NCBI GenBank assembly: GCA_039931265.1
Contig: JBDTSG010000147.1
Coordinates: 85,451 to 149,450 of the forward strand
Direction: 5' to 3'
DNA: 64,000 nt
Origin: Flavobacteriales bacterium
GTDB lineage: Bacteria > Bacteroidota > Bacteroidia > Flavobacteriales_F > PHOS-HE28
The notes beneath the pieces are model-generated. The model was not told the origin of the DNA and did no database searches. It saw only the letters and a program-made list of their open reading frames with translations. This document shows positions 4,105 to 61,335 of this stretch, piece after piece; positions within the stretch are counted from its first letter, which is position 1; every line of letters begins with the position of its first letter. A program made the position numbers and the translations under genes.

Positions 4105-4208
4105 ATCGTCGGTTCCTTTCAAAGGGCCGCTAATGTAGCCTTGTAGCGCCTTCCGCCACCGCCGCATCGCCGAGGTACGCGCAGCTACTTTTGGCCGGTC
4201 GCAACACC

Positions 4209-46215: not shown

Positions 46216-46647
46216 TTACTCCCCGATGTCCTCGTTCCAAAGAGCAGGTTCCGCTGCGATGAACTCTTCCATCATCGCCACGCACTCCGGCAGGTCAAGG
46301 TCGATCACTTCCACACCGTGACTTTCCATGAAGGCGCGGGCTCCCGCGAACGTCCGGCTCTCGCCCACGACCACCTTCTTGATCTTGAACTGAACGATGG
46401 TGCCCGCGCACATGTAACACGGCATCAGCGTAGAGTAGATCGTGGTGCCCTTGTAACTGCCGATACGGCCCGCGTTGTTGAGGCAATCCATTTCGCCATG
46501 CAGGATCGGGTTCTTCTCCTGCACGCGCTTGTTGTGGCCACGTGCGATCATCTTCCCATCGCGCACCAACACGGAGCCGATAGGGATGCCGCCTTGCGAC
46601 CGGCCCAAGCGAGCTTCGGCAATCGCCGCTTGCATGTGCTCGTCCAT
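46216..46647 (-). CDS. CDA-fold nucleoside/nucleobase deaminase, yeast FCY1-type cytosine deaminase-like
   Basis: Zinc motifs HGEMDC and PCYMCAG. The sequence is colinear, from memory, with yeast Fcy1 (GGIPIG..., RGHN..., TLHGE..., TLSPCDMCTG..., C-terminal WFEDIGE versus LWNEDIGE here). Confidence 0.75.
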   Translation of the reverse strand: MDEHMQAAIAEARLGRSQGGIPIGSVLVRDGKMIARGHNKRVQEKNPILHGEMDCLNNAGRIGSYKGTTIYSTLMPCYMCAGTIVQFKIKKVVVGESRTFAGARAFMESHGVEVIDLDLPECVAMMEEFIAAEPALWNEDIGE

Positions 46648-47905: not shown

Positions 47906-49255
47906 TCAGCCCTTGTAATGCCTCGGCTTCTTCTTCACCAAAGCCTCCGCAGGTTCCGGCACCCAATGGTGCAAGCCGCCCGCGAGCGGATCATCGAAGG
48001 TCTTCGGGATGTTACCGGCGGCCGTGCGCTCGCCCCAGGTGAGGTGTTGCTTGCCATCGTCGCGGCGCTCCATGGTGATGCAGCCTTCCACCGGGCAAAC
48101 GAGTGAGCAGAGGTTGCAGCCCACACAGTTCTCCTCAATGATGCTCGGGATGCGGATGGCGGGATCGCTGGACAAGGCGATGGCTTGGTGCGCGCCGTCC
48201 TCACAGGCGGTGTAGCAGAGCTGGCAGCCGATGCACTTGTCGGGGTTGATGTCCGCGACGACCTTGTACTTGAGATTGAGGTCCTCCCAGTGCATGATGT
48301 TCGGCAGTGCCTTGCCGCGCATCTGCTCGATGGTCTTGAAGCCCTTCGAATCCATATAGCTCTCCAGGCCGGGCAGCAGCTCGCGGATAATGCCGAAGCC
48401 GTAATGCATCACGGCGGTACATACTTGCACGGTCGTGGCGCCCAGCAGGATGAACTCCACAGCATCGCGCCAGTTCTCCACGCCGCCGATGCCGCTGATC
48501 GGCAGTTGCACGTTGGGACTTTGTGCGCAGTTCTTCACCATGTTCAGCGCGATCGGCTTCACGGCCGGGCCGCAGTAGCCTCCGTTCGTGCTCTTGCCAT
48601 CCACAACAGGGTATGGAACGAAGTTGTCGATGTCCACGCCTACGATGCTCTGGATCGTATTGATCAACGAGATCGCATCGCCACCTCCTTCTTTCGCCGC
48701 GGTCGCAGGTCGCGTGATGTCCGAGATGTTCGGCGTGAGCTTGACGATCACGGGGATCTTCGCGACTTCCTTCACCCAGCCCACGATCATCTTCAGGATC
48801 TTCGGCTCCTGCCCCACCGCGCTGCCCATGCCGCGTTCGCACATGCCGTGCGGACAACCGAAGTTCAACTCGATGCCATCGGCGCCTGCGTTCTCCACGT
48901 CACGCACGATCTGGTGCCATTCCTCCTTCGTCTCCACCATCAACGAGGCGATCACCGCGTTGTCCGGGAAGCGCTTCTTCACCTCGCTGATCTCGCGCAG
49001 GTTGTCCTTCAGCGGGCGGTCGGTGATAAGCTCGATGTTGTTGAAGCCGATCATGCGGCTGTTGCGATAGTTCACGCTGCCATAGCGGCTGCTCACGTTC
49101 ACCACGGGTACGCCGAGGGTCTTCCACACGGCTCCGCCCCAACCCGCGTCGAAGGCTTTCATGATCTGGTAGCCGCTGTTCGTTGGCGGGGCTGAAGCCA
49201 GCCAGAAAGGGTTCGGGGATTTGATCCCTGCGAGGTTCGTTCTCAGATCTGCCAT
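47906..49255 (-). CDS. preA: NAD-dependent dihydropyrimidine dehydrogenase subunit PreA
   Basis: Dihydroorotate-dehydrogenase-like TIM barrel (NFGCPHGM, ISGIGGV) plus two C-terminal 4Fe-4S motifs (CIGCQLCYTACEDG, CVGCNLCSLVCPVEGC). Confidence 0.88.
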   Translation of the reverse strand: MADLRTNLAGIKSPNPFWLASAPPTNSGYQIMKAFDAGWGGAVWKTLGVPVVNVSSRYGSVNYRNSRMIGFNNIELITDRPLKDNLREISEVKKRFPDNAVIASLMVETKEEWHQIVRDVENAGADGIELNFGCPHGMCERGMGSAVGQEPKILKMIVGWVKEVAKIPVIVKLTPNISDITRPATAAKEGGGDAISLINTIQSIVGVDIDNFVPYPVVDGKSTNGGYCGPAVKPIALNMVKNCAQSPNVQLPISGIGGVENWRDAVEFILLGATTVQVCTAVMHYGFGIIRELLPGLESYMDSKGFKTIEQMRGKALPNIMHWEDLNLKYKVVADINPDKCIGCQLCYTACEDGAHQAIALSSDPAIRIPSIIEENCVGCNLCSLVCPVEGCITMERRDDGKQHLTWGERTAAGNIPKTFDDPLAGGLHHWVPEPAEALVKKKPRHYKG

Positions 49256-49265
49256 GTCAATGGGT

Positions 49266-49296
49266 CAATTAGCGAATTAGCCAAGTAGCGAATGGG
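49266..49296. repeat. AATTAGCGAAT-unit inverted-repeat arm (distal arm of the hairpin enclosing the four-helix-bundle gene)
   Basis: caattagcgaattagccaagtagcgaatggg. Its inner 11 nt (tagcgaatggg) are the exact reverse complement of 49747-49757, and the outer units pair with 49758-49770 after a 6-nt bulge. Confidence 0.8.
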
Positions 49297-49298
49297 CG

Positions 49299-49751
49299 CT
49301 AGCCCAAGCGCTTCTTGGCTGTGCTGATGGTCTTGTTCAGGATGCGTAGGATGTTCTGGAGGCGGTCGATCAGCCCCGGATCGTTGCCTTTGTCGTTCGA
49401 TGCGGCAAGCAGATGGTACCAGTACTCGGTCTCATCGGCTTCCTTCAAAGCGGCCTTCATCTTGTGAATGAAGTCTTTGAGGCTTTCGGCGTTCTGTGCC
49501 TCCTTGACGTTCGCTCCGATCGAGCAGCCGGAACGTTGGATCTGATTGAGTAACCAACGGCGTTCGTTGCCCAGTCGATCCGAGTACTTCAGAACGGCAA
49601 CCGCGAATTCGAACGACTGTCGAAGGATAACGTTCTCACGATACAACGGACTGCTGGAGTAAGCTGCCGCAGGCTCGTTCACAACATGCTCATCAGCAGA
49701 AGTCGCCTCTTCGCACAACGCACTCCATTCCGATGTCACCACGGTCCCCAT
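49299..49751 (-). CDS. Four-helix-bundle protein (23S rRNA intervening-sequence protein family)
   Basis: FEFAVAVLKY...QIQRSGCSIGANVKEAQNAES.KDFIHKMKAALKEADETEYWYHLL is the signature of the TIGR02436-type family. It is inserted between preT and preA. Confidence 0.85.
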   Translation of the reverse strand: MGTVVTSEWSALCEEATSADEHVVNEPAAAYSSSPLYRENVILRQSFEFAVAVLKYSDRLGNERRWLLNQIQRSGCSIGANVKEAQNAESLKDFIHKMKAALKEADETEYWYHLLAASNDKGNDPGLIDRLQNILRILNKTISTAKKRLG

Positions 49752-49786
49752 TCGCTAATTCGCTAATTGCCTCATTCGCTAATTAT
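49747..49786. repeat. AATTAGCGAAT-unit inverted-repeat arm (proximal arm); contains the preT stop and the four-helix-bundle ATG
   Basis: The minus strand reads TAATTAGCGAATGAGGCAATTAGCGAATTAGCGAATGGG. The leading TAA is the preT stop (49783-49785) and the last ATG is the four-helix-bundle start (49749-49751). Confidence 0.8.
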
Positions 49787-51126
49787 CTCTTCAGCCACTG
49801 GTCGATCCCATGCGCCGCCTTCTTCGCTTCCGCCGCCGCGTTCACCACTTCCACACCACCGTTCACCGCATCACCTGCGGCGAAATACTTCGGGTTGTTG
49901 GTCTGGAACAGTTCGTTCACCACAATGCGGCCGCGGTTGTCGAGAATGCGGCCTTTCACGTCAAGCTTCACGCCGCTGATCTGCTCCAACAATTCCACCT
50001 GCTTGCTCTGGCCCGTGCCGAGGATCAGCATGTCACACGGCTCCACGAAGTCGCTGCCAGGAATGTTCTCCATCTTCCCATAGGCTGATCGCGTGCGGAT
50101 GAACTTCACCCCTTCCACCTTGCCGTTGCCTATGACTTCCACCGGCACCACGTTGAACAGCGCCTTCGCGCCGCTCTTCTTCGCCAAGTCGAACTCGAAG
50201 CTGTACGCGCCCATCTCTTCCGGTCCGCGACGGTAGGCGATCGTCACGCTCTCCGCGCCCATGCGGCAACTCTCGCTCGCGGCGTCCATGGCCGTGTTGC
50301 CGCCGCCGAGCACGATCACCTTGTTGCCAACTGGTGTGGTGAGATGCTTCGCGCGCAGCTGCTCCACGAACTCCACTGCACCGATCACGCCTGCCTTGTC
50401 CTCGCCCGTGATCCCGAGCCGCGATGTGCCGCCGAGTCCGATGCCGATGAAGATCGCATCGTAGTCCTTTTCCAGCTTGTCCAGCGCCGTGCGATCGCTG
50501 ATCGGCTTGTTGTAGTGTGTGCTGAAACCGAACTGATCCTGCAGGTAGGCGATCTCGTCCACCGCCTGTTCGTTGGTGAGCTTGTAGGGAGCCACGCCGT
50601 AGACACAAAGACCGCTCGGCTTGGCCTTGGCTTCGTACACGTCCACCGTGTAGCCGAGCATCAGCAGTTCGCACGCGCACGAGATCCCCGCCGGTCCCGC
50701 ACCGATCACAGCCACCTTCTTCCCGTTCGGCTTGCCGGTTATGAAGAGCTTCTTCTTCTCGCGGATCGCTTTGCCCGTGGCGTGTGCCTGCAAACGACCG
50801 ATCTCGATCGGCTTCACATCGCTGTGGTTGTAGACACAAGCGCCTTCGCACAACTCCTCGGTCGGACACACCTGCCCGCACGCATGGCCCATCCAGTTGC
50901 TGTCGTAGATCGTCTTCGCAGCGCCAGTGTCATTCCCCGAATTGATCTGGCGGATGAAGAGCGGGATGTCGATGCCAGTGGGGCACGCGTTGATGCACGG
51001 GGCATCGTAGCAGTATAGACAGCGCGAGCTCTCGTAGTACGCCTCCGTCTGGGTCATCAGGGGCTTCTTCGGGTGGAAGTTCTTTTCGAACTCGGCCTCG
51101 GTGGTAGGTCTCTTGTACTCTGCCAT
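49783..51126 (-). CDS. preT: NAD-dependent dihydropyrimidine dehydrogenase subunit PreT (GltD-like)
   Basis: N-terminal Fe-S cysteines (CLYCYDAPCINACPTGIDIP) and two dinucleotide folds (VIGAGPAG, VLGGGNTAMD). Confidence 0.88.
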   Translation of the reverse strand: MAEYKRPTTEAEFEKNFHPKKPLMTQTEAYYESSRCLYCYDAPCINACPTGIDIPLFIRQINSGNDTGAAKTIYDSNWMGHACGQVCPTEELCEGACVYNHSDVKPIEIGRLQAHATGKAIREKKKLFITGKPNGKKVAVIGAGPAGISCACELLMLGYTVDVYEAKAKPSGLCVYGVAPYKLTNEQAVDEIAYLQDQFGFSTHYNKPISDRTALDKLEKDYDAIFIGIGLGGTSRLGITGEDKAGVIGAVEFVEQLRAKHLTTPVGNKVIVLGGGNTAMDAASESCRMGAESVTIAYRRGPEEMGAYSFEFDLAKKSGAKALFNVVPVEVIGNGKVEGVKFIRTRSAYGKMENIPGSDFVEPCDMLILGTGQSKQVELLEQISGVKLDVKGRILDNRGRIVVNELFQTNNPKYFAAGDAVNGGVEVVNAAAEAKKAAHGIDQWLKR

Positions 51127-51150: not shown

Positions 51151-51232
51151 GAGCTGCGAGCCGCGAGCCACGAGCTTGATCCGGTTCTAAAACCCGGTCA
51201 AGCTCGTGGCTCGAAGCTCATGGCTCGCAGCT
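51151..51232. repeat. Long imperfect palindrome (CGAGCC/GAGCT-unit hairpin) between the beta-ureidopropionase and preT genes
   Basis: The arm agctgcgagcc...gagccacgagcttga (51152-51179) pairs with tcaagctcgtggctc...ggctcgcagct (51198-51232) around ccggttctaaaacccgg. By hand this gives about 30 paired positions with one ~8-nt bulge. Confidence 0.7.
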
Positions 51233-51243
51233 ATCCAAGTTGA

Positions 51244-52110
51244 TTAGAGTTCAACGATCTTCCCATACGTCTCCGGCCTGCGATCCCGGAAGAACTGCCA
51301 CGTGCTGCGCACCTCTTCGATCATGTCCAAGTCGAACTCGGCGACAAGCAGTTCATCATCATCGCGCGATGCTTGCTTGAAGATCTGCCCACGCGGGTCG
51401 ACGAAGTAGGACTGCCCGTAGAACTTGCCGAGGTTCCATGGCTTCTCTTCACCAACACGGTTGATACAGCCCATGAAGTAGCCGTTCGCCGCGGCGTGTG
51501 CCGGTTGCTCCAGCTTCCACAGGTATTCGCTCAGTCCGGCAACGGTGGCGCTGGGGTTGTAGACTATCTCCGCGCCGTTCAGTCCGAGGCAGCGTGCGCC
51601 ATCGGGGAAGTGGCGATCGTAGCAGATGTACACGCCCACCTTGGCATACTTGGTCTGGAAGACCGGATAGCCGAGGTTGCCGGGTTTGAAGAAGAACTTC
51701 TCCCAGAAGCCGCTCGTGTGCGGGATGTGGTTCTTGCGGTACTTCCCCAGATAGGTGCCGTCCGCATCGATCACAGCCGCGGTGTTGTACAGCACGCCCG
51801 CTTGTTCCTTCTCGTAGATCGGAACGACGATGACCATGTTGTACTTCTTCGCGTACTGCGCCATCAGCTCTGTCGTGGGACCGGGCACGCTCTCCGCGCT
51901 CTCGTACCACTTCCGGTCCTGGCCCGGACAGAAGTAGGGCGTGTTGAAGATCTCTTGCAAGCAGAGGATCTGCACACCTTGCTGGCCGGCTTTTTCAATG
52001 TACGGGATGTGCTTCTGAACCATCGCGTCGATGATCTCTTGGATCGTGCCTTCACCCTCCGTCTTCGGAAGGCTCATCTGTATGAGGCCGCTCTTGACTT
52101 TCCTTGGCAT
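51244..52110 (-). CDS. Beta-ureidopropionase (N-carbamoyl-beta-alanine amidohydrolase), CN-hydrolase family
   Basis: Nitrilase-superfamily blocks (LCLQEIF, YRKNHIP, VYICYDRHFPD with the catalytic Cys). I chose the start at MPRKVKSGLIQMS (ATG 52108-52110). Confidence 0.8.
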   Translation of the reverse strand: MPRKVKSGLIQMSLPKTEGEGTIQEIIDAMVQKHIPYIEKAGQQGVQILCLQEIFNTPYFCPGQDRKWYESAESVPGPTTELMAQYAKKYNMVIVVPIYEKEQAGVLYNTAAVIDADGTYLGKYRKNHIPHTSGFWEKFFFKPGNLGYPVFQTKYAKVGVYICYDRHFPDGARCLGLNGAEIVYNPSATVAGLSEYLWKLEQPAHAAANGYFMGCINRVGEEKPWNLGKFYGQSYFVDPRGQIFKQASRDDDELLVAEFDLDMIEEVRSTWQFFRDRRPETYGKIVEL

Positions 52111-52223
52111 GGGTAAGTGCGTTTCGGGTTGACGTTCGCCAATGTAGCCACCTGTTCGCTCGCTTCGGCGCGCGGCACCGAAGACCTGTGCCAAGCTATA
52201 CTTGCTTCGCCCCACCAGCCCCC

Positions 52224-52913
52224 ATGAGCCACCAGACCGAGGACTTCCGTGATGAAGTGAAGAAGGAGTTCCAACTGGAACGCATGATCCTGTTCAGCGA
52301 TGCGGTCTTCGCCATCGTGATCACGCTGATGGCCATCGAGATCAAGCTTCCGGAAGGTGCACACCTGGGCACCACCATGAGCAACGCCCATGCCCTCCAC
52401 CTGCTGGTCCCGGCGATCACGGCATACGTCATCAGCTTCTTCGTTATCGGGGCCATCTGGTACAGGCACCTGCGCCTGTTCAGCATCCTGAAGGACTATG
52501 ACAAGGGTTTGGTGATCCACAACCTTGCCTTGCTCTTCTTCATCGGACTTTTTCCCTTCACTGCGTCGCTGTTCACGCATGCACAAGGTTCGGTGCTTGC
52601 ATACACGCTGTACCTCGGGATGATCTACTGCTGCTTGGTCGCCCAGCTCCTATTGCAACGCTATATCCTCGTGCGACGACCGGGACTGTGCGTCAACACG
52701 GATCTCTCGGAGCACAAGCGATTGTACCAACGCACCCAGGTGCTCACCATCTCCTTCGGGATCAGCATCGCGTTGATCTTTCTCACCCGGCAGTTGATCA
52801 CCGACCCCGAAATGAAGACCATGGCAACGTGGTGGATCTTCCTGGTGCCGCTCTCCGTGCGGATCTTCGCGAAGAAGAAACCCAAGGCGGCGGCGGTGGC
52901 AGCAAAAGACTGA
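52224..52913 (+). CDS. TMEM175-family (DUF1211) potassium-channel-like membrane protein
   Basis: RMILFSDAVFAIVITLMAIEIK matches the FSDGVFAIAITLL signature helix; six TM segments. Confidence 0.75.
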   Translation: MSHQTEDFRDEVKKEFQLERMILFSDAVFAIVITLMAIEIKLPEGAHLGTTMSNAHALHLLVPAITAYVISFFVIGAIWYRHLRLFSILKDYDKGLVIHNLALLFFIGLFPFTASLFTHAQGSVLAYTLYLGMIYCCLVAQLLLQRYILVRRPGLCVNTDLSEHKRLYQRTQVLTISFGISIALIFLTRQLITDPEMKTMATWWIFLVPLSVRIFAKKKPKAAAVAAKD

Positions 52914-52968
52914 GCGGTTTCTTTCGTTCGGGCGTGCCGGCTCGAATACTCGCCTTCGTTACTGGCTA

Positions 52969-53433
52969 CTATGGATACCTTAACGGTTGGAGGTTGAACC
53001 TCACGCCTTCTTTGTGATCAGGAGGAAAGACAGGACTCTTTATGCCGAAAGGTCCTGATCCATTTCTCTGGTAGTAGTAAGCCTTAGACTCTGAAGAAAA
53101 TCGTCCGGAGCAGAGCAGTCTGAGAACCGTGCGATCATCAACGACCGATTCAACTGAAACATCGATCCAAACAGGTACTTTCTCATTGCGACACAAAAGA
53201 TCGACGACCTCTTGGTCTTTGATCAACAAGTGGCGAACACCTGCATCTTCAGGATAAACGTCGAACTGCTCTAGTTCAGGACTATCGTTCGAGATGTTGA
53301 GAAAGACGTTGTATCGAAACTCGGTAGTCAGCCTATCACTGACCATCTCTTCAGCGAACTTGAAGGCAGCATAGCTTGCCCCGAGAAGTAGGAAGCGGAA
53401 ATCAGTCTTGTTCATTACAGTTGTATCACTCAC
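52969..53433 (-). CDS. Hypothetical protein in an AT-richer segment
   Basis: The track start is GTG (53431-53433), overlapping the dihydropyrimidinase TGA (GTGA). An alternative ATG lies at 53413-53415 (MNKTDF...). No recognised family. The composition is visibly AT-richer than its neighbours. Confidence 0.5.
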   Translation of the reverse strand: MSDTTVMNKTDFRFLLLGASYAAFKFAEEMVSDRLTTEFRYNVFLNISNDSPELEQFDVYPEDAGVRHLLIKDQEVVDLLCRNEKVPVWIDVSVESVVDDRTVLRLLCSGRFSSESKAYYYQRNGSGPFGIKSPVFPPDHKEGVRFNLQPLRYP

Positions 53434-54809
53434 AGCATCCCACTCACCTTGTTCCGCTTCACGAACTGCCCGTAGCCCTTCTTGATCTTCGTCTCCCCCT
53501 TCTCAATCGCCACTTGGCCGCGCAGGATCACGGTCTTCACCTTGCCCGTGAGTTGCATGCCTTCGTAGGCGCTGTAGTCCACGTTCATGTGGTGCGTTTT
53601 CGCGCTGAGGGTGTGGCGCTCGTTGGGGTCGAGCAGGATGATGTCCGCGTCGCTGCCGATGCCGATGGTGCCTTTGCGCGGGAACATGCCGAAGATCTTC
53701 GCGGGGTTGGTGGCCGTGACCTCCACGAACTTGTTCACGGTGATGCGCTTCTTGTTCACGCCTTCGCTGAAGAGCAGTTCCATGCGATGCTCGATGGCAG
53801 GATGACCGTTGGGGATCTTCGAAAAATCGTCCTTGCCGAGCAGCTTCTTCTCCCAAGTGAAGGGGCAGTGGTCCGTGGCCACTACTTGTATGCTGCCCTG
53901 GTCGATGCCGGCCCATAGTTGGGCTTGGTCCTTCTTCTCGCGCAGGGGCGGGCTCATCACCCACTTCGCGCCATCGGCCTGTTCGTAAAGCGAGGCGTCG
54001 AGCAACAGGTATTGGATGCACGTTTCAGCGAGCACACGCTGGCCGCGCCGCGCCGCATCGCGCACGTGGTTGAGCGCGCCTTCGCAGGTCATGTGGACGA
54101 TGTACGCGGGTACGCCCGTGTGCCAAGCCATATCAGCGAAGCGGCCACTGGCCTCGGCCTCGGTGATCTCCGGCTGGCTGAGGTAGTGGTACAGCGGTGA
54201 GAGCTTGCCTTCCGCGCGGTGCTTCTGGACGAGGAAGTCGATCATGTCGCCGTTGGTGGCGTGTACCGTGACCAGTCCGCCACACTTCTTCACCTCTTGC
54301 ATCAGGCCGACCATCTGGCGGTCGTCGATCATCAGCGCGCCCTTGTACGCCATGAAGGTCTTGAAGCTGGTGATGCCTTCCTGCTCGATCATCTCCTTCA
54401 CTTCCTTCTTCGTGTCGTCGTTGAAGTCGGTGACGGCCATGTGCCAGCTGAGGTCGCCATAAAGGTTGCCCTTCATTCGGCCCTGCCATTGCTCCAACGC
54501 GTGGTGCAGGCTCTTGCCCTGTGTTTGCAGGATGAAGTCGATGACGGTGGTGGTGCCACCGTGCAACGCTGCGCGCGTGCCGGTCTCGTAGTTGTCGCTG
54601 CTGTATGTGCCCATGAAAGGCATGTCGAGATGCACGTGCGGGTCGATACCGCCGGGCAGCACAAAGAGGCCTTTCGCGTCGATCACCTGCGCGCCGTCGG
54701 CTTTCAGATCGTGTCCGATGGCCTTGACGTGTTCGCCTTCGATGAGCACGTCGGCGCGGTGGAAGTCGGCGGCGGTGACGACGGTGCCGTTCTTGATGAG
54801 GAGGCTCAT
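53430..54809 (-). CDS. hydA: Dihydropyrimidinase (D-hydantoinase-type cyclic amidohydrolase)
   Basis: GGIDPHVHLDMPF metal-binding HxH block, FKTFMAYKG (carboxylated-Lys region), VHAT/ETC blocks and ATDHCPF. Confidence 0.9.
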   Translation of the reverse strand: MSLLIKNGTVVTAADFHRADVLIEGEHVKAIGHDLKADGAQVIDAKGLFVLPGGIDPHVHLDMPFMGTYSSDNYETGTRAALHGGTTTVIDFILQTQGKSLHHALEQWQGRMKGNLYGDLSWHMAVTDFNDDTKKEVKEMIEQEGITSFKTFMAYKGALMIDDRQMVGLMQEVKKCGGLVTVHATNGDMIDFLVQKHRAEGKLSPLYHYLSQPEITEAEASGRFADMAWHTGVPAYIVHMTCEGALNHVRDAARRGQRVLAETCIQYLLLDASLYEQADGAKWVMSPPLREKKDQAQLWAGIDQGSIQVVATDHCPFTWEKKLLGKDDFSKIPNGHPAIEHRMELLFSEGVNKKRITVNKFVEVTATNPAKIFGMFPRKGTIGIGSDADIILLDPNERHTLSAKTHHMNVDYSAYEGMQLTGKVKTVILRGQVAIEKGETKIKKGYGQFVKRNKVSGML

Positions 54810-54847: not shown

Positions 54848-54875
54848 CAATTGTGCAGCAGCTTGCTGCACAATT
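54848..54875. repeat. CAATTGTGCAGC-N-GCTGCACAATT palindrome, copy A
   Basis: caattgtgcagca-gct-tgctgcacaatt, 12-bp perfect arms. It directly abuts the TGA of the DUF1016 gene (54876-54878) and is preceded by gat. Confidence 0.85.
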
Positions 54876-55985
54876 TCATTTCCGCTTCCGGGGCTTGGGT
54901 TTCTTCAGCTCCTTCTCGATGTCAGAGGTGGATGGTAACAAGCGTTGCAGCTTCTTGGGCAGTTCCGCCACGAGCTTGGTGCGCCAGTCGGAAACACCGA
55001 TGGGCTTATTGGTGGCGCGCAGTGCATAATCCACCTTGAGCTTCTTGCTGTCCTGGCATAACAGCACACCGATGGTAGGCTGATCGTCGGGGTGGCGGAG
55101 CTGTTCATCCACCGCGCTCAGATAGAAACCCATCTTGCCGACATACTCCGGCTTGAAAGCGCCCATCTTCAGTTCAATGACCACGTAACTCCGCAGGCGA
55201 ACATGATAGAACAACAGGTCGATGTAGTAGTCGTCGCCTTCCACCTCCAGGTGGAACTGTTTTCCGAGGAAAGCGAAGCCCACACCCAGTTCGATGAGGA
55301 ACTTCTGGATGTGCTCCACCAACCCTTGCTCCAATTCACGCTCGCGCGCATCCAATCCCAGCGAAAGGAAATCGAATGTGTATGGATCCTTGAGCGTTTG
55401 ATGCGCCAGGTCCGAGCGGTCAGGCGGCAACGTGCGCTTGAAGTTGGTGATCGCTCTACCATGCCGCTTATGCGCCTTGGCCGCGATCTGCATGGCCAGC
55501 ACGGAGCGGCTCCAACCGTGCTGTAGTGCTGCTGCCGCGTACCAGCGGCGATCCTCGGCCTTCTTGAGCTTGTCGAGCAGCACCAAGTTGTGTGCCCATG
55601 GCAATTGTGCAGCAGCCTGCTGCACAATTGCGATCTCGGGATACGCTTCGGCGAAAGCCCGCATGTAAAGCAGGTTGCGCGGCGAGAGGCCGCCCATCTG
55701 CGGGAACTCGGCCAGCAGGTCGGCCCCCAAGCGTTCCACCACTTTGCTGCCCCAGCCTTCCTTCCCCTGCCGATCAAGGATCTCGTGCCCGATCCGCCAA
55801 TAGAGCGCGATCAGTTCCGTATTCACCGATAGCGCCGCCTTCACTTGTGCCTTGCGGATGCGGTCTTTCAAGCCCGTCAGGAACTGTTCATAGCCAACGG
55901 GCAGTGCCGCATCGGTGGATCGCTTCGCAACTTTCCTGGACATGTCGCCAATGTAGAACAGGCTTTCCGCCGAGTGATGGACCAT
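54876..55985 (-). CDS. DUF1016 / YhcG-type PD-(D/E)XK nuclease domain protein
   Basis: N-terminal DUF1016-type helical region (LYWRIGHEILDRQ..., IVQQAAAQLPWAHN) and a C-terminal nuclease core (YYIDLLFYH...YVVIELKMG, i.e. D...ELK). Confidence 0.85.
   Translation of the reverse strand: MVHHSAESLFYIGDMSRKVAKRSTDAALPVGYEQFLTGLKDRIRKAQVKAALSVNTELIALYWRIGHEILDRQGKEGWGSKVVERLGADLLAEFPQMGGLSPRNLLYMRAFAEAYPEIAIVQQAAAQLPWAHNLVLLDKLKKAEDRRWYAAAALQHGWSRSVLAMQIAAKAHKRHGRAITNFKRTLPPDRSDLAHQTLKDPYTFDFLSLGLDARERELEQGLVEHIQKFLIELGVGFAFLGKQFHLEVEGDDYYIDLLFYHVRLRSYVVIELKMGAFKPEYVGKMGFYLSAVDEQLRHPDDQPTIGVLLCQDSKKLKVDYALRATNKPIGVSDWRTKLVAELPKKLQRLLPSTSDIEKELKKPKPRKRK
55602..55630. repeat. Same palindrome, copy B (inside the DUF1016 coding sequence)
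   Basis: caattgtgcagcagcctgctgcacaattg. On the minus strand it encodes AIVQQAAAQLP. Confidence 0.85.
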
Positions 55986-55993
55986 GGGGCGAT

Positions 55994-56022
55994 CAATTGT
56001 GCAGCAGGTTGCTGCACAATTG
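55994..56022. repeat. Same palindrome, copy C (just upstream of the DUF1016 ATG)
   Basis: caattgtgcagcaggttgctgcacaattg, preceded by gat. Including its flank gccacg, it matches the reverse complement of copy B (gccatg) with 2 mismatches over about 35 nt. Confidence 0.85.
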
Positions 56023-56106
56023 CCACGATCCGCTCCCGCTCGATCATCAGAGTTGGACGGTGATATGCCGAAACCCCTACATGACCGGCTCCAGACCGTT
56101 CAAGAT

Positions 56107-56133
56107 CAATTGTGCAGCGATCGCTGCACAATT
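56107..56133. repeat. Same palindrome, copy D (overlaps the NCS1 permease stop codon)
   Basis: caattgtgcagc-gat-cgctgcacaatt, preceded by gat. The permease TAA (56132-56134) overlaps its last 2 nt. Confidence 0.85.
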
Positions 56134-57574
56134 AGCGCCGACCCTTCATCAACAACGAATATGCAGCGCCGGACACCACGAAGCCCACGAACCACGCATA
56201 GTGGTAGAGGCCGTTGATCCATGCGGGCATCGCTTCGGGTGACACGACCCCGATCTGGGCCAAGAAGCCCGGGACATTCGGAAGAATGCCGACCAACAAA
56301 GCGATGATCGCGGCGCTATTGAATCCGCCGCCGTACGCGTAACGGCCTTTCGTGCTGTAGAGATCGTTCACGTCCAACTGCTGGCGTCTGATGAAGAAGT
56401 AGTCGACGATCATGATCCCGCCGATGGGGCCGAGCAAGCTGCTGTACGCGATGAGCCAGGTGAAGATGTAGCCGCTGGGATCCGCGATCAACTTCCACGG
56501 GAAGATGAGGATGCCGATGATGCCCGTGATGTAGCCGCCGCGCTTGAAGTCGATGCGCTTGGGCGCGAGGTTGGCAAAGTCGTTGGCGGGGCTGACGATG
56601 TTGGCCGCGATATTGGTGGCGAGCGTGCTGATGGCCACGCAGATCATGGCGATGCTCACGAGCAACTTGCTGTCGAAGCGCTCGGCTATCGCCAGCGGAT
56701 CCCAAAGGGTGGTGCCGTAGATGATGGTGGTGGCGGAAGTCACGACCACGCCGATAAAGGCGAACATCGTCATGCTCGGTGCAAGGCCGATGGCCTGCCC
56801 GCTGATCTGCGCGCGCTGGCTCTTGGCGTAACGTGTGAAGTCGGGGATGTTGAGCGATAGCGTGGCCCAGAAGCCGACCATGCCCGTGAGCGCCGGGAAG
56901 AAGAAGTTCCAGAACTCGGCGCTGGTCGCGAACTTGGAGGGTTGTGCGAGGATCGGCCCGAAACCATGCGCGGCACTGAGCGCCCACCACAGCAAGGCCA
57001 GCGCAGCGAGCGGCAGGAAGATCGCCTTCACCACGAGCAGGCGGCGGATGATCTCCACGCCGTAGTATACCACCACCATGTTCAACAACCAAAAGAGCAG
57101 GAAGGCGATCGCCGGACCCGTACCAAGACCTACCCACGACGGCAGGAATTGCGGCAGGTGGATCGCATCGCCGAACCAGACTTTCACCATTAAGTAGATC
57201 GAGTGCCCCCCGATCCACGTCTGGATCCCGAACCAACCACACGCCACGATCGCCCGCAGCATCGCCGGGATGTTCGCGCCGCGCACACCGAAGCTGGCAC
57301 GCGCGAGCACGGGGAACGGGATGCCATACTTGGCACCGGCATGGCCGTTCAGGATCATCGGCACCAGCACGATGGCGTTGCCGAGGAACACTGTTAGGAT
57401 GGCCTGCCACCAGTTCATGCCGCCCTCGATCAACGAACTGGCGAGCATGTACGTGGGAATGCACAAGCTCATGCTGATCCACAGCGCGGCGTAGTTCCAC
57501 GTGCCCCACGTGCGTTTGGCGGGCGGAACCGGCGCGAGGTCTTCGCTGTAGAGGGAGGGGTCTTCCAAAAGCAA
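56132..57574 (-). CDS. NCS1-family nucleobase:cation symporter (cytosine/uracil/hydantoin-type permease)
   Basis: 12-TM NCS1 layout with the N-terminal DLAPVPPAKRTW block. The called start is TTG (57572-57574), and no in-frame ATG lies nearby. Confidence 0.88.
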   Translation of the reverse strand: MLLEDPSLYSEDLAPVPPAKRTWGTWNYAALWISMSLCIPTYMLASSLIEGGMNWWQAILTVFLGNAIVLVPMILNGHAGAKYGIPFPVLARASFGVRGANIPAMLRAIVACGWFGIQTWIGGHSIYLMVKVWFGDAIHLPQFLPSWVGLGTGPAIAFLLFWLLNMVVVYYGVEIIRRLLVVKAIFLPLAALALLWWALSAAHGFGPILAQPSKFATSAEFWNFFFPALTGMVGFWATLSLNIPDFTRYAKSQRAQISGQAIGLAPSMTMFAFIGVVVTSATTIIYGTTLWDPLAIAERFDSKLLVSIAMICVAISTLATNIAANIVSPANDFANLAPKRIDFKRGGYITGIIGILIFPWKLIADPSGYIFTWLIAYSSLLGPIGGIMIVDYFFIRRQQLDVNDLYSTKGRYAYGGGFNSAAIIALLVGILPNVPGFLAQIGVVSPEAMPAWINGLYHYAWFVGFVVSGAAYSLLMKGRR

Positions 57575-57579
57575 TGTGG

Positions 57580-57659
57580 CAATTAGCGAATGTGCGAATT
57601 AGCGAATGCTCCGACAAGGAGCCACTCGCTAATTCGCTAATTGGTCATTCGCTAATTAA
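57580..57659. repeat. ORF-less copy of the AATTAGCGAAT-unit hairpin
   Basis: The minus strand reads TAATTAGCGAATGACCAATTAGCGAATTAGCGAGTGG - gctccttgtcggagc - ATTCGCTAATTCGCACATTCGCTAATTG. The first arm is almost identical to the arm at 49747-49785. Confidence 0.85.
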
Positions 57660-57757
57660 CCACACCCCTCATCCGCAATGGTCACCGCCTTGCTGATGAT
57701 CTCCATCCCCTCATCCACACCAGCCTCATCGATGCACAGCGGCGGGGCAACCAAGAG
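57656..57757 (-). pseudogene. Duplicated, diverged 3' fragment of the class-III aminotransferase gene
   Basis: The minus strand encodes VAPPLCIDEAGVDEGMEIISKAVTIADEGCG*; the functional gene ends VAPPLCIDEAGVDEGMEIISKAIGIADEACV*. By hand alignment, 77 of 87 nt are identical between 57669-57755 and 58414-58500. Confidence 0.8.
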
Positions 57758-57825: not shown

Positions 57826-58356
57826 TTACACTGTCCTTCCCTGGAACTTCCCGTCCTGGATAGAGTACTTCGCCCGAAATGCACCAGCGCCATCTCCCCC
57901 ATCGATGGCAAGCACAAAAGAGTCCGGTCCGATGCTATCCATCCGGAAGTACGAATCATGGCAAGATGCTGACATGTCATACATATCAGTGATCTTCTCT
58001 CGTGGGATATCGATAAGACATTCGCCGAACATGACGATCAGAGAATCGACTCCGTTGACGGGCATGCTTCCATCCGTACCCAAGACATCCAGGTAATCGA
58101 TTTTGTCCACGCCAAATTCACTCTGCTCAATTCGGTGAGCAGCAGTATCGAACTGGCTTACCACCATTCTTATCCTTAGCGTTCCATCGGCATTCATGGC
58201 CATGATGCGTCCGCCTTCCTTGCAGTGCAAAATGAACGGGGCATGTATGCTACAAGCGGCGGAATGCGGTAACACGTCCCCTTCATCTTGTTCCGTGAAA
58301 GGAGGTGCATGCTCCTGTTTCGCCGGTGCACATGCGAACATGAGATAAGCGAGCAT
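57826..58356 (-). CDS. Hypothetical lipoprotein-like protein in an AT-richer segment
   Basis: I chose the start at MLAYLMFACAPAKQ (lipobox-like). The track ORF start at 58410 overlaps the aminotransferase 3' end. No recognised family. Confidence 0.5.
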   Translation of the reverse strand: MLAYLMFACAPAKQEHAPPFTEQDEGDVLPHSAACSIHAPFILHCKEGGRIMAMNADGTLRIRMVVSQFDTAAHRIEQSEFGVDKIDYLDVLGTDGSMPVNGVDSLIVMFGECLIDIPREKITDMYDMSASCHDSYFRMDSIGPDSFVLAIDGGDGAGAFRAKYSIQDGKFQGRTV

Positions 58357-58400
58357 GGATATGGCCAGTTCAGGCGGGATCCTCAATGCGCGTTCGCTGA

Positions 58401-59753
58401 TCACACGCACGCTTCATCCGCAATGCCTATCGCCTTGCTGATGATCTCCATCCCCTCATCCACGCCCGCCTCATCGATGCACAACGGCGGCGCCACGAAG
58501 ATCCAGTTCCAGCGGACGAAGGTGAACATGCCCAGCTCGTTGATCTTGGCAGCCACCTTGTTCATCACGGCCATCTCCTCGGGCTTCGCGTTCCAGGGCG
58601 CCATCGGTTCCTTGGTCTCTCGGTTCTTCACCAGTTCGATGCAACCCAGCAGGCCGGTGTTGCGGAAGTCGCCGATGCTCGGGTGCTTCTGTGCGAGTTC
58701 GGCCACGCGCTTCTCCACATACTTGCCCATGCGCGCGGCGTTCTCGACCAGGTTCTCCTCTTCGTAGATATCGATCACGGCATTCGCAGCAGCGCAAGCC
58801 ACGGCATGCGCGCTGTACGTGAGGCCGATCGGAAGCGGCTTGTCCTCGAAATGCTTGATGATCTCCTCGCGTACGATCAATCCGCCGAGCGGGATGTAGC
58901 CTGCGGTGATGCCCTTGGCCATGCACATCATGTCCGGCACCACGCCGTGGTGATCGATGCCGAACCACTTGCCCGTGCGACCGAAGCCGCTCATCACCTC
59001 ATCGGCAATGGTGAGGATGCCGTAGCGATCGGCGATGGCCTTCACGCCTTTCCAGTAGCCCGGCGGGTATTTGATGCAGCCGCTGGATCCGCTCTCCCCT
59101 TCCAGCATGATCGCCGCGATGTACTGCGGGCCCTCATACTTAACGACGCGTTCCAAGTGCGCGAGCGCGTTCTCCGTACACTCTTCTGGTGTCTTGCTGT
59201 TCCACGGACAGCGGTAGAAGTACGGGTTCTCCACGTGGATGATGTTCGGCACGCCCTGGCTGTCGTGCGGCAAACCGCGTGGATCGCCGCCCGCGCTGAG
59301 CGCGCCATACGTGGCGCCGTGGTAGCTCTGGTACAGCGTGATGATCTTGTGTCGACTGGTGTAAAGGCGAGCAAGCTTCATCGCGTGCTCAACCGCTTCG
59401 GTGCCACCGTTGGTGAAGAAGGTGCGGCTGAGCGAACCCGGCGTGATCTCCGCGAGCTTCTTTCCCAGCTTACCACGCGCCTCGGTGATCATGCCCGGAT
59501 GCACGTAGCTCACCTCGGCCATCTGCTTCGCCACCGCCTCCGCGACTTTCGGATGCCCGTGTCCGATATTCACGTTCATCAGCTGCGAACTGAAATCGAT
59601 GAAGCGCTTGCCGGACCGCTCGTAGAGGTAGATGCCCTTGGCACGCTCGATGTTCAACGGGTTCAAGCCGCTCTGCTTGCTCCACGAGAAAATGGTGTGC
59701 TCGAGGTTGTCCTTCAGGATCTCGGCGGGGTTGGTTTTGGTTGTCGTGCTCAC
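58401..59753 (-). CDS. Class-III PLP aminotransferase (omega-amino acid / beta-alanine--pyruvate type)
   Basis: FFTNGGTEAVE and DEVMSGFGRTGKWF blocks. The probable GTG start is at 59751-59753, since no in-frame ATG occurs before residue ~85 and the track extension to 59828 runs through the intergenic palindrome. Confidence 0.85.
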   Translation of the reverse strand: MSTTTKTNPAEILKDNLEHTIFSWSKQSGLNPLNIERAKGIYLYERSGKRFIDFSSQLMNVNIGHGHPKVAEAVAKQMAEVSYVHPGMITEARGKLGKKLAEITPGSLSRTFFTNGGTEAVEHAMKLARLYTSRHKIITLYQSYHGATYGALSAGGDPRGLPHDSQGVPNIIHVENPYFYRCPWNSKTPEECTENALAHLERVVKYEGPQYIAAIMLEGESGSSGCIKYPPGYWKGVKAIADRYGILTIADEVMSGFGRTGKWFGIDHHGVVPDMMCMAKGITAGYIPLGGLIVREEIIKHFEDKPLPIGLTYSAHAVACAAANAVIDIYEEENLVENAARMGKYVEKRVAELAQKHPSIGDFRNTGLLGCIELVKNRETKEPMAPWNAKPEEMAVMNKVAAKINELGMFTFVRWNWIFVAPPLCIDEAGVDEGMEIISKAIGIADEACV

Positions 59754-59771
59754 GTGGATGTCATTACGGTT

Positions 59772-59859
59772 GAATATCGAACACCGAACATCGAATGGTG
59801 AATGTCGAAGTGAATGCGCGCATTCCACTTCGGTGTTCGGCGTTCATCATGCGATATTC
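59772..59859. repeat. Long imperfect palindrome (CGAAC/CGAAT-unit hairpin) between the mmsA and aminotransferase genes
   Basis: The outer segments gaatatcg / cgatattc form a perfect 8 bp. The inner segments cgaagtgaatg-cgcg-cattccacttcg pair with a 1-nt bulge. Middle ccgaaca / tgttcgg segments also pair. The element starts 3 nt after the mmsA TGA. Confidence 0.7.
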
Positions 59860-59862
59860 CTA

Positions 59863-61335
59863 TCAGCTCATCCAATTCGTCTTCCCTTCCGGATTCCACT
59901 TCGTCGTGGTTTTCTTCAGCTGCGTCCAGAACTCGATGCTGCTCTTCCCGGTGATATCGCAGGTGCCGAACTTGCTATCGTTCCAGCCGCCGAAGCTGAA
60001 GGGCTCGCGCGGCACGGGCACGCCGATGTTCACGCCGATCATGCCGGCGCTGGCGCGTTCCATGACCTGGCGCGCGTTGCCACCGCTTTGTGTGAAGACC
60101 GCAGCGGCATTGCCGTAAGGGTTCGCGTTCTCGATAGCGATACCCGCATCCAGGTCCTTCGCGCGGATGATGCTGATCACCGGACCGAAGACCTCTTCCT
60201 GGGAGATGCGCATGTCCTGCGTCACGTGGTCGATGATCGTGGGGCCGAGGTAGTAGCCGTTCATCTTGTCGCCATCCACGGTCGGGTTGCGGCCGTCGAG
60301 CAACACTTTGGCACCGGCCTTCTCTGCTTCCGCGATGAAACCGAGGATGCGCTCGTACGAGGTCTTGCTGATCACGGGACCGAGGTTCTTGCCAGGGATG
60401 AGCTTCTTGGCTTCCACGATCATCTGCTGGATGATCGGTTCCACCGCACCGATGCCGACCATCTGCGCGGCGGCCATGCAGCGTTGACCAGCGCAACCGC
60501 TCATGCTGGCGACGACGTTGCTGGCGGTCATTTCCAAGTGCGCATCGGGCAGCACGAGGAGGTGGTTCTTCGCACCGCCGAGGCAGAGCGCGCGCTTCAG
60601 CGTGCTTGTGGCACGGATGTAAACGATCTTGGCAACCTTAGTGGAACCCACGAAGCTCACGGCTTTGATGCCGGGATGATCGCAGATGGCTTCCACGATC
60701 GCGCGGTCGCCGTTCACCACGTTGAAGACGCCATCGGGCAGGCCCGCTTCCTTCAACAGTTCCGCGATGCGGATGGCGCTGATGGGCACCACCTCGCTCG
60801 GTTTCAGGATCATGGTGTTTCCCAGCATCAGCGCGTTGGGGATGGTCCAGTGCGGCACCATGTTCGGGAAGTTGAACGGTGCGATGCTGGCAATTACGCC
60901 CAGCGGCTTGCGCTCAATGCGGCACTCCACACCCTTGCTCACTTCCAGTACTTCACCCTGGATCAGTTGCGGCAAACTGCAGGCGAATTCCGTCAGCTCC
61001 ATGCTCTTGTCCACCTCGGCGTACGACTCGTCCATCGTCTTGCCGTTCTCGGTGTGTACCAGTGTGGCAAGTTCCTCGCGGTTCTTCAACAGCAACTCGC
61101 GATAGCGGAAGAAGATCTGCGAACGCTCCTTGATCGGCGTGCCACTCCAACCGGGGAAAGCGGCTTCGGCAGCCTTCACCGCTTTGTCGAGGTCGCTCGC
61201 GGTGCTGAGAGGAACAGTGCTGATCAACGTGCCATCCAACGGTGAATGGACGTCCATCCGCTGCTGTCCGTCCGCATCCGGTTTGCCGGCGACATAGTTC
61301 TTGACTTCGGGATACTTGAGGGCGAGGGTTGGCAT
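59863..61335 (-). CDS. mmsA: CoA-acylating methylmalonate/malonate-semialdehyde dehydrogenase
   Basis: Aldehyde dehydrogenase fold with FVGSTKVAKIVY, the catalytic Cys block CAGQRCMA and the C-terminal tail GKSSIEFWTQLKKTTTKW, which is typical of MmsA. Confidence 0.92.
   Translation of the reverse strand: MPTLALKYPEVKNYVAGKPDADGQQRMDVHSPLDGTLISTVPLSTASDLDKAVKAAEAAFPGWSGTPIKERSQIFFRYRELLLKNREELATLVHTENGKTMDESYAEVDKSMELTEFACSLPQLIQGEVLEVSKGVECRIERKPLGVIASIAPFNFPNMVPHWTIPNALMLGNTMILKPSEVVPISAIRIAELLKEAGLPDGVFNVVNGDRAIVEAICDHPGIKAVSFVGSTKVAKIVYIRATSTLKRALCLGGAKNHLLVLPDAHLEMTASNVVASMSGCAGQRCMAAAQMVGIGAVEPIIQQMIVEAKKLIPGKNLGPVISKTSYERILGFIAEAEKAGAKVLLDGRNPTVDGDKMNGYYLGPTIIDHVTQDMRISQEEVFGPVISIIRAKDLDAGIAIENANPYGNAAAVFTQSGGNARQVMERASAGMIGVNIGVPVPREPFSFGGWNDSKFGTCDITGKSSIEFWTQLKKTTTKWNPEGKTNWMS

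Follow-up and report, generated by a model that had tools for sequence, protein, structure and literature searches.

How can the genes for the two subunits of one enzyme share an operon when the spacer between them is filled exactly by a third gene enclosed in two complementary repeat arms, and what do these arms do? The question is raised by a locus in a 64 kb stretch of DNA from a Flavobacteriales bacterium (GenBank assembly GCA_039931265.1, contig JBDTSG010000147.1, positions 85,451 to 149,450), hereafter the window, which is the sole stretch of the source genome covered and within which copies of the element were counted. From 44 to 62 kb its minus strand carries a reductive pyrimidine-degradation operon, and the preT-preA spacer of this operon holds a gene for a four-helix-bundle (4HB) protein together with its two arms, here called the cassette. 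The preferred reading, to which about an even chance is given, is that the locus is a resident intervening-sequence-type cassette, a member of a class widespread in Bacteroidota operons whose stem would be processed by RNase III. The features needed first, in the order of transcription, are a homologous element without an open reading frame (ORF), called the twin, and the cassette with its two neighbours:

57656-57754, minus strand: 32-amino-acid remnant duplicating the C-terminus of the aminotransferase, its stop codon opening the left arm of the twin
57575-57660, minus strand: ORF-less twin, in which the same arms enclose a 15-nt mini-hairpin; it opens at the TAA of the aminotransferase remnant and closes just short of the NCS1 permease start
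49783-51126, minus strand: preT-like gene (dihydropyrimidine dehydrogenase small subunit; Pfam Fer4_20 and Pyr_redox_2)
49745-49785, minus strand: left (5') arm, about 4.4 period-8 units of AATTAGCG / AATGAGGC, holding the preT stop and the 4HB ATG (49751-49749)
49299-49751, minus strand: 4HB ORF of 150 amino acids, with profile matches to PF05635/TIGR02436 and a match to PDB 2RLD
49259-49298, minus strand: right (3') arm, the complement of the left arm with an extra degenerate unit (GACCCATT), ending 4 nt before the preA ATG
47906-49255, minus strand: preA, NAD-dependent dihydropyrimidine dehydrogenase subunit PreA (NCBIfam NF006183 equivalog, 672 bits)

An earlier description made from the letters of the window alone (the sequence-only reading) had placed the gene in the loop of a hairpin that begins at the preT stop codon, and this anatomy stands. 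The stop TAA (49785-49783) is the opening triplet of the left arm TAATTAGCGAATGAGGCAATTAGCGAATTAGCGAATGGG, the 150-amino-acid ORF begins inside the same arm at the ATG at 49751, and the complementary CCCATTCGCTACTTGGCTAATTCGCTAATTG begins 2 nt past the ORF stop TAG (49301-49299), with preA starting at 49255. Every frame is closed by a stop codon in the 5' arm. The expected recurrence of the arm motif is found as well, the 11-mer AATTAGCGAAT (at most one mismatch) having 10 occurrences in 64 kb against 0.47 expected, all at the cassette and the twin, and the period-8 arrays that Tandem Repeats Finder reports coincide exactly with the four arms of these two elements. Both elements fold better than shuffled controls: the 535-nt cassette RNA reaches -195.2 kcal/mol against -169.1 +/- 6.0 for shuffles (z -4.4) and the twin -53.5 kcal/mol against -22.9 +/- 3.2 (z -9.5), while the arm-arm duplex of the cassette taken alone gives -39.7 against -16.8 +/- 3.5. 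As regards the details of the stem, the pairing of the arms put forward by the sequence-only reading is retained, but its register of 11 bp and a bulge is not the favoured one in the partition function. Two registers are possible, with GCGAATGGG/CCCATTCGC as the alternative because the arms are repeats, and in a 546-nt RNA the shifted register is preferred, with 19 long-range pairs at P >= 0.9 joining 49776-49757 to 49259-49278; this preferred register consequently hides the sequence as far as 4 nt short of the preA ATG. In the transcript, folding predicts a stem of 20 bp or more between the arms, whose base sets the preT stop beside the preA start.

Hairpins between bacterial genes are common, and one account would take the feature for an ordinary intergenic hairpin or intrinsic terminator, or for an inverted repeat that arose by chance beside a small, unremarkable gene. 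The excess of the motif and the fold z-scores given above stand against it, as does the recurrence of the design across the 4HB family described below. Furthermore, a terminator scan places no site at either hairpin and shows no overall excess, the stems being long, A+T-rich and not followed by a T-run, and the window contains no rRNA or other Rfam family at gathering or permissive thresholds. With next to no probability left for this account, an ordinary terminator or chance repeat is excluded.

The guest protein matches PF05635 with 63.1 bits (cut-off 33.8), TIGR02436 with 75.1 bits (cut-off 24) and PDB 2RLD, a pentameric (5 chains) Bacteroides protein, with E = 3.5e-18. Avd, the pentameric accessory protein of diversity-generating retroelements (DGRs), is among its relatives. 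Its orthologues show ratios of nonsynonymous to synonymous substitution rates (dN/dS) of 0.05-0.20 at dS of 0.7 to >2, hence the protein is functional and under strong purifying selection, and the N-terminal extension that starts within the arm is conserved in the amino-acid alignment. The exact 150-amino-acid protein has no record in the collection, in which a 147-amino-acid call from a different start is present (P0001), and its nearest proteins come from metagenome-assembled genomes of high-G+C 'Flavobacteriales bacterium'. In PADLOC, no defence model fits the 4HB protein.

The twin, which the sequence-only reading had placed about 8 kb away at another TAA and regarded as the empty counterpart of the cassette, is indeed of that kind. 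Its arms enclose GCTCCTTGTCGGAGC in place of the ORF and are colinear with the joined arms of the cassette at 83% column identity; since the irregular unit and the trailing CTAATTGnCnCATTG match as well, it is a true homologue of the cassette arms. It is absent from the relatives that can be checked, the aminotransferase-NCS1 junction of L207 measuring 5 nt and L206 having no aminotransferase gene at that place. The suggestion that such elements are like MITEs (miniature inverted-repeat transposable elements) fares less evenly: terminal inverted repeats on a short non-coding element are present in the twin alone, the filled copy having an ORF, but a target-site duplication was found neither at the cassette (flanks AGAGA / ACCCA, no direct repeat) nor at the twin (flanks GTGGT / CCACA, no direct repeat). 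Next to the twin, a duplication covers the final ~95 nt of the aminotransferase gene (58401-58500 and 57656-57754, ~88% identical), and the similarity runs on weakly into the first arm unit of the twin. Between the two copies lies an ORF of up to 194 amino acids (57826-58410) of lower G+C (0.48-0.52) that matches no family and has a lipoprotein-like LMFAC motif. An inserted gene seems to have displaced, along with the hairpin, the original 3' end of the aminotransferase gene.

Comparison with orthologous preT-preA junctions shows that presence and absence of the cassette differ among relatives and that the loci that bear it carry the ORF with co-varying repeats, which agrees with what the sequence-only reading had led one to look for. 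A 4HB gene with arms lies between preT and preA in the window, L001/L206 (GCA_016788205), L003 (GCA_902826215), L207 (GCA_016715995), L208 and L126. The arm unit is TTAGCGAATG/CATTCGCTAA (GCGAAT/ATTCGC) in the window and L001, and TTAGCTGATG/CATCAGCTAA (GCTGAT/ATCAGC) in L003, L207, L208 and L126, both sides having changed together. Scores of left against right arms are 31-50 within a unit type and 13-31 across unit types, and among the 26 pairs that RNAalifold finds for five orthologues, 6 show compensatory double changes. As pairing is kept at dS 0.7 to >2, the arms have remained complementary while neutral sites were largely replaced.

At the same junction other relatives carry a tight 3-nt spacer (L211/L212, PreA 88% identical to that of the window), a HicB-like and HicA pair (L213/L214, PreA 90%) or, in L210, the closest relative by PreA (97%), an unrelated 144-nt spacer. 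The idea that the L210 spacer is a decayed cassette was dropped as a visual impression only, the best blastn-short match being 11 nt. One junction further upstream, between the CN-hydrolase gene and preT, L208 has nothing but a 10-nt spacer, the window (51151-51232) and L206 (8530-8605) have an ORF-less heptamer hairpin, L003 has a PDDEXK_3 gene within 36-nt arms (4082-4636) and L207 has a second 4HB gene with arms of its own (8070-8616); hence one junction has been used repeatedly by different guests. Cassettes are also exchanged. In L003 4647-7931 and L208 399-3698 the flanks are ~80% identical, whereas the 3' two-thirds of the cassette are 96-97% identical in a tract that reaches from mid-ORF to ~60 nt into preA, so that the end-points of this exchange do not lie at the arms. 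Conversely, L001 and L207 are 80-93% identical in the flanks and 27-69% in the cassette. These discordant histories of cassette and flank show that the cassette has been exchanged horizontally. In the metagenome set described below, most 4HB pairs at 70-80% protein identity sit in different operons, as do 2/18 of the pairs at >=80% identity, and in one pair (L132/L157, 86%) the homology extends into the arms. Arms and ORF together act as one evolutionary unit that has been gained, lost, replaced and exchanged horizontally at one junction.

Horizontal exchange and replacement at one site, with presence or absence among relatives, are also what would be expected if the arms were structures of the DNA, that is, the ends of a non-autonomous mobile element (MITE-like, or like the REPINs formed by repetitive extragenic palindromic (REP) sequences) or homology tracts, the RNA hairpin being incidental. 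The ORF would then be copied between hairpins by recombination or template switching, and DNA-level correction would keep the arms complementary. Such a process would suit the occupation of a single junction by unrelated guests, each with its own arms, and the ORF-less homologue 8 kb from the cassette. It is at odds with the missing target-site duplications and with the stability of orthologous cassettes, which remain in place across saturated dS. In addition, the units vary widely by locus and genome, so there is no single recognition sequence, and the window shows no transposase or REP-associated tyrosine transposase (RAYT), although no dedicated RAYT test was made. Also left unexplained would be the placement of the arms from stop codon to ATG and the 94% co-orientation with the host operon, both described in the following. 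An origin and maintenance of the arms at the level of DNA is held to be possible but rather doubtful.

Whether the locus is an isolated case was addressed by a metagenome scan seeded by protein motifs alone ([KR]EAQNAES and [AK]DF[IV]HK[LMI]K), which gave 80 loci, the best 80 of 534 confirmed relatives (42-56% identity). A flank score was defined as the local alignment of [start-80, start+20] with the reverse complement of [stop-25, stop+80]; control ORFs were taken from the same loci, unannotated frames included, and start codons of neighbours were inferred mechanically. Scores of 28 or more are reached by 54/74 4HB ORFs and by 20/335 controls, several of the high-scoring controls being direct neighbours of a cassette, and the medians are 35.5 and 15, respectively (Mann-Whitney p = 5e-28). 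In independent genome loci, 9/10 4HB ORFs fall within the top 1.4% of 1407 ORFs by flank score; one of these genome-locus ORFs, L041, has unrelated units and was chosen independently of arms. Ranking the ORFs by RNAduplex energy of their flanks was given up in favour of the alignment score, being uninformative because G+C-rich loci dominate. Flank identity at lag 8 is 0.43-0.46 for 4HB ORFs against 0.32 for controls, the consensus of the arm unit is R-A-T-T-W-G-A-N and the commonest unit is AATTTGAA. Where a unit is irregular, the opposite arm mirrors it (L196, L136).

The geometry seen in the window is general as well. On the left side the median distance from the upstream stop to the arm start is -3 nt and from the arm end to the 4HB ATG 9.5 nt; on the right side the arm follows the 4HB stop by 6 nt and the next in-frame ATG follows the arm end by 6 nt. 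Stops in all three frames occur in the 5' flank of 62/74 4HB ORFs and 122/335 controls, compared to 23/74 and 132/335 for the 3' flank. The 4HB ORF has the orientation of the upstream neighbour in 60/64 cases and of the downstream neighbour in 61/68: the cassette depends on the host operon transcript and is nearly always co-oriented with it. Recurrent hosts are adjacent subunit or pathway genes, namely scoA|scoB, hmgA|hppD and sufB|sufC, and furthermore enoyl-CoA hydratase|3-hydroxyacyl-CoA dehydrogenase and arsC|acr3 or arsM.

Two loci depart from these protein-coding hosts. At L142 2835-3369 and L187 573-1104 the 4HB gene lies ~40 nt 3' of a Bacteroidales small signal recognition particle (SRP) RNA gene (Rfam RF04183, 99-111 bits), co-oriented with it, so that the cassette also rides an abundant non-coding RNA transcript outside rRNA. 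A further pair of loci, L171 1571-1930 and L190 2956-3342, has the same neighbours (a release-factor-2-like gene and cluster 14) with the cassette in sense in one and in antisense in the other. Inversion from arm to arm as a phase switch does not fit, as the L190 cassette is reversed relative to L171 with its arms included, which suggests independent insertions at one junction and not an inversion between the arms.

The stop-arm-ATG geometry, being general across the sampled 4HB loci, brings in a second account, namely that the arms are a translational device which needs no cleavage and in which the stem base sets the upstream stop beside the downstream ATG. A ribosome ending on preT might melt the outer pairs and unmask the preA initiation region, or reinitiation might occur by a shunt-like passage across the stem base; in either case the coupling of PreT to PreA would be kept despite the 530-nt insert, and translation of the 4HB gene would be gated too. 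In the favoured register, positions 49776-49770, which would lie under a ribosome stopped at 49785-49783, are paired with 49259-49264 just 5' of the preA ATG. Many hosts are pairs of adjacent subunit or pathway genes (scoA|scoB, sufB|sufC, preT|preA, hmgA|hppD) and the ORF-less hairpins likewise span exactly from stop to start. Bacteroidota largely do without Shine-Dalgarno pairing and need unstructured initiation regions, which also counts in favour of such a device. On the other hand, relatives manage with tight junctions free of a hairpin (3 nt in L211), so coupling as such requires no stem, and the strand-symmetric mismatch spectrum reported below argues against any selection at the level of RNA. 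Overall, a translational role that dispenses with cleavage is judged unlikely, if clearly worth keeping in view.

Outside the 4HB loci, the arm units are met in a wider set of repeats. A scan of the genome collection for ATTAGCGRATTAGCGA returned at least 119 loci, a number to be read against ~500 chance matches expected in 596 Gb by our own arithmetic; many of the matches are lone two-unit matches inside genes, and the informative ones are multi-unit arrays, inverted arrays and loci that abut a 4HB gene. Among the matches listed, 6 of the 119 loci have an abutting 4HB ORF, as recognised by a hidden Markov model of its own subfamily. In Flavobacterium selenitireducens D33, AATTAGCG arrays are present at >=10 loci (L011, L028, L051, L054, L056, L058, L070, L073, L077, L079); several form long hairpins (loops of 40-110 nt) extending from a stop codon to the ATG that follows, and one is a 450-nt composite array (L056 2819-3269). 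This strain shows a genome-wide expansion of the unit of the window. Moreover, a second array of the cassette's own arm is found within 3 kb in 6/54 loci as opposed to 3/270 unrelated pairings. The D33 arrays and these second arrays add to the case for a DNA-level element.

A strict 8-nt period with a unit skeleton RAT(T/G)(T/A)G-N-N shared at many loci could also mean that the arrays are putative binding sites, in RNA, single-stranded or double-stranded DNA, of an oligomeric protein, possibly the pentameric 4HB protein itself, and that the complementarity of the arms merely follows from both being arrays of one motif. The association of the arrays with 4HB ORFs would accord with this, and so would the properties of the relative Avd, whose positively charged pentamer binds both nucleic acid and reverse transcriptase (PMC10053308 and general background). 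However, the arms are true mirror copies down to irregular units, which goes beyond arrays of one motif, and PDDEXK_3 and DUF1016, two other guest families, possess arms as well. Arrays with no 4HB gene close by also far outnumber those with one, as seen from the small share of 4HB-abutting loci just given, in a set that includes many lone chance matches. That the arrays are in essence protein-binding sites is accordingly regarded as improbable.

The closest known counterparts are the intervening sequences of rRNA, and the likeness that the sequence-only reading saw to them is borne out by the complementary arms, the tandem repeats of the 5' arm before the ATG and the sense orientation of the ORF. 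The intervening sequence in helix 45 of the Coxiella burnetii 23S rRNA has complementary termini and an S23p ORF of the PF05635 family; three to four tandem GACAGAT heptamers directly precede its ATG, the RNase III cut maps to the first repeat, and the ORF appears to be untranslated and decaying (PMC4990558). Leptospira intervening sequences are described there as likewise cut by RNase III and horizontally transferred (PMC4990558; Ralph & McClelland 1993 as cited there). Shared with the cassette are thus a PF05635 protein, an ORF read in the direction of the host transcript, inverted repeats at the termini, which pair into a long stem, and tandem repeats in the 5' arm before the ATG (GACAGAT three to four times in Coxiella, AATTAGCG three to four times here), as well as ORF-less versions, a sporadic distribution and evidence of horizontal transfer. 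In contrast to the rRNA elements, which sit in an rRNA helix, the cassette is hosted by the spacer of a protein-coding operon (preT-preA), its arms abut stop and start codons, its 5' arm has stops in all frames, its units measure 8 nt and not the 7 nt of Coxiella, and its protein is strongly selected where that of Coxiella is decaying and apparently untranslated. Excision by RNase III, demonstrated for the rRNA elements, is here proposed by analogy.

Other systems resemble the cassette in part. Correia elements of Neisseria, also known as Correia repeat enclosed elements (CREE) or Neisseria miniature insertion sequences (NEMIS), are short intergenic inverted repeats, and the 86-nt twin is similar to them in size and position; they are co-transcribed, their hairpins are bound or cleaved by RNase III and the expression of adjacent genes is altered, so that intergenic inverted repeats in mRNAs can be RNase III substrates (PMC2649163). 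CREE differ, however, in their 26-bp terminal repeats, TA target duplication and hundreds of near-identical copies, whereas the cassette arms are variable 8-nt arrays with no target duplication found and many copies include a conserved ORF. In the 64 kb covered of the source genome there are two copies of the element. REP sequences, bacterial interspersed mosaic elements (BIMEs) and REPINs with RAYT are likewise intergenic, often intra-operonic hairpins just after stop codons (PMC3116915, PMC3479197) and are multi-copy in some genomes, like the arrays of F. selenitireducens D33. Yet a REP unit, recognised by RAYT, is an imperfect palindrome 20-40 nt long that has a conserved GTAG head, while each cassette arm is a tandem direct array and not a palindrome, and ORF-bearing forms exist. 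Avd of DGRs has a homologous four-helix-bundle fold and belongs to the same family (PMC10053308), but the cassette lies in a catabolic operon without a reverse transcriptase or a template/variable repeat pair; among the ORFs at 44-62 kb, nearly all of which belong to catabolic or guest families, a few having no family, no reverse transcriptase is found. Finally, the intergenic tandem arrays of Cyanobacteria, Beggiatoaceae and some Bacteroidetes (TAACTGA heptamers) have units of 7-8 nt and often lie a few nt 5' of start codons, and a post-transcriptional role has been proposed for them (PMC4679880); these direct arrays neither have a complementary partner arm nor enclose an ORF. A full-text search of the searchable library found no description of repeat-array arms around PF05635 operon genes, a result that leaves novelty unproven. 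The window locus apparently exemplifies a general and undescribed design of guest genes in Bacteroidota operons.

In the preferred reading of the locus as an intervening-sequence-type cassette, RNase III would cut the long arm duplex as it does in the rRNA intervening sequences of Coxiella and Leptospira. Cleavage would free the 4HB message with its ATG unmasked and would split the preT and preA RNAs at a defined site, and the all-frame stops in the 5' arm, together with arms that abut both cistrons, would make the insertion harmless to the host operon. The cleavage step itself, a cut in a duplex of at least 20 bp on the model of the rRNA elements, falls somewhat short of an even chance. Several points weigh against it. 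Selection on an RNA helix of the sense strand normally enriches G.U pairs. When the mismatch spectrum was counted over 65 stems, isolated mismatches were 18 of G.U type and 22 of A.C type, without a signature of sense-strand RNA, and over all mismatches the A.C type (111) exceeded the G.U type (67). Mismatches that are symmetric between strands mean that a DNA-level process could maintain the complementarity of the arms, and the parity of G.U and A.C types is a further point for that alternative. Moreover, the geometry of stop, stem and ATG fits coupling of preT and preA at least as well as their uncoupling, and cleavage would part the mRNAs of the two subunits of one enzyme with no obvious benefit to the host. 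Lastly, the S23p ORF of Coxiella is decaying while the 4HB protein here is conserved, so the two systems may work differently. RNase III processing, translational coupling and DNA-level maintenance are not mutually exclusive.

A more far-reaching combination of these ideas is quite speculative and is put forward with little confidence. 4HB cassettes would be widespread mobile 'intervening sequences' of highly used transcripts (mRNA operons, SRP RNA and rRNA), the octamer arms a portable, operon-safe bypass module and the stem the target on which the pentamer acts. The module would offer an all-frame stop at its entry, and its stem would set the upstream stop beside a landing ATG ~6 nt beyond, with shunt-like reinitiation or RNase III excision as the outcome. 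The protein might, as with Avd, aid a copy-in step mediated by RNA or single-stranded DNA, and such a step would account for sense orientation in 94% of cases as well as for horizontal replacement at fixed sites.

Since the early 1990s there has been, to our knowledge, no settled account of what rRNA intervening sequences, or the very large PF05635 family, are for and where they came from. If the cassette design is common in Bacteroidota operons, the question of the intervening sequences becomes testable in tractable Bacteroides and Flavobacterium, since in mRNA-borne cassettes the protein is clearly selected and the flanking genes offer easy read-outs, namely subunit stoichiometry, RNA ends and rnc mutants. 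The design would also provide a rule by which small guests (4HB, PDDEXK_3, DUF1016, toxin-antitoxin pairs) settle in tight operons without breaking them, would explain part of the abundant period-8 intergenic repeats of Bacteroidota genomes, and would bear on annotation and on operon engineering in gut and environmental Bacteroidota.

The remaining features of the operon in the window are the following:

59863-61335, minus strand: aldehyde dehydrogenase gene
58401-59828, minus strand: class-III aminotransferase gene
56132-57574, minus strand: NCS1 nucleobase:cation symporter (permease) gene, Pfam Transp_cyt_pur and TIGR00800, directly 3' of the twin
54848-56133, minus strand: second guest gene region, a DUF1016/YhcG PD-(D/E)xK gene at 54876-55985 bracketed by 28-nt palindrome copies CAATTGTGCAGCAGnnTGCTGCACAATTG
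53430-54809, minus strand: dihydropyrimidinase-type amidohydrolase gene
51244-52215, minus strand: CN-hydrolase gene
51151-51232, minus strand: third ORF-less hairpin, of period-7 units (GAGCCGC / GAGCCAC), between the CN-hydrolase gene and preT
46216-46647, minus strand: dCMP-deaminase-like gene

The 4HB gene is not the only guest with hairpins in these operons. Two further sites of this kind, hairpin or guest gene, are present in the operon of the window and had escaped the sequence-only reading, as had the family-wide recurrence of the design and the strong purifying selection on the protein. The DUF1016/YhcG gene is the PADLOC candidate PDC-S02 (E = 7e-149), and copies of its palindrome CAATTGTGCAGCAGnnTGCTGCACAATTG lie at 56107-56133 (starting within the NCS1 stop codon), 55994-56025 and 54848-54875. 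The ORF itself contains a fourth one (55599-55630), coding for IVQQAAAQLPW, so that the flanking hairpins mimic an internal coding segment of the nuclease gene; CAATTGTGCAGCAGnnTGCTGCACAATTG might be a recognition or recombination site. In L003 the PDDEXK_3 gene is enclosed by inverted arms of 36 nt, and at the end of the operon there is an ORF-less hairpin built from the same units, and in L104 another PDDEXK_3-like gene, with a GxxExxY motif, lies within a stem.

Between the dihydropyrimidinase and CN-hydrolase genes, the minus strand at 52074-53433 is low in G+C (0.46-0.53) and carries two ORFs (154 and 170 amino acids) without a Pfam or PADLOC match, which are probably further guest genes; relatives have other small ORFs or a DUF4238 gene in this interval. 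The HicB-like and HicA pair (L213 9562-9966, L214 362-766) sits exactly between preT and preA without complementary arms, and in L210 an NTP_transf_2 and HEPN pair (2629-3344) lies directly 3' of preA.

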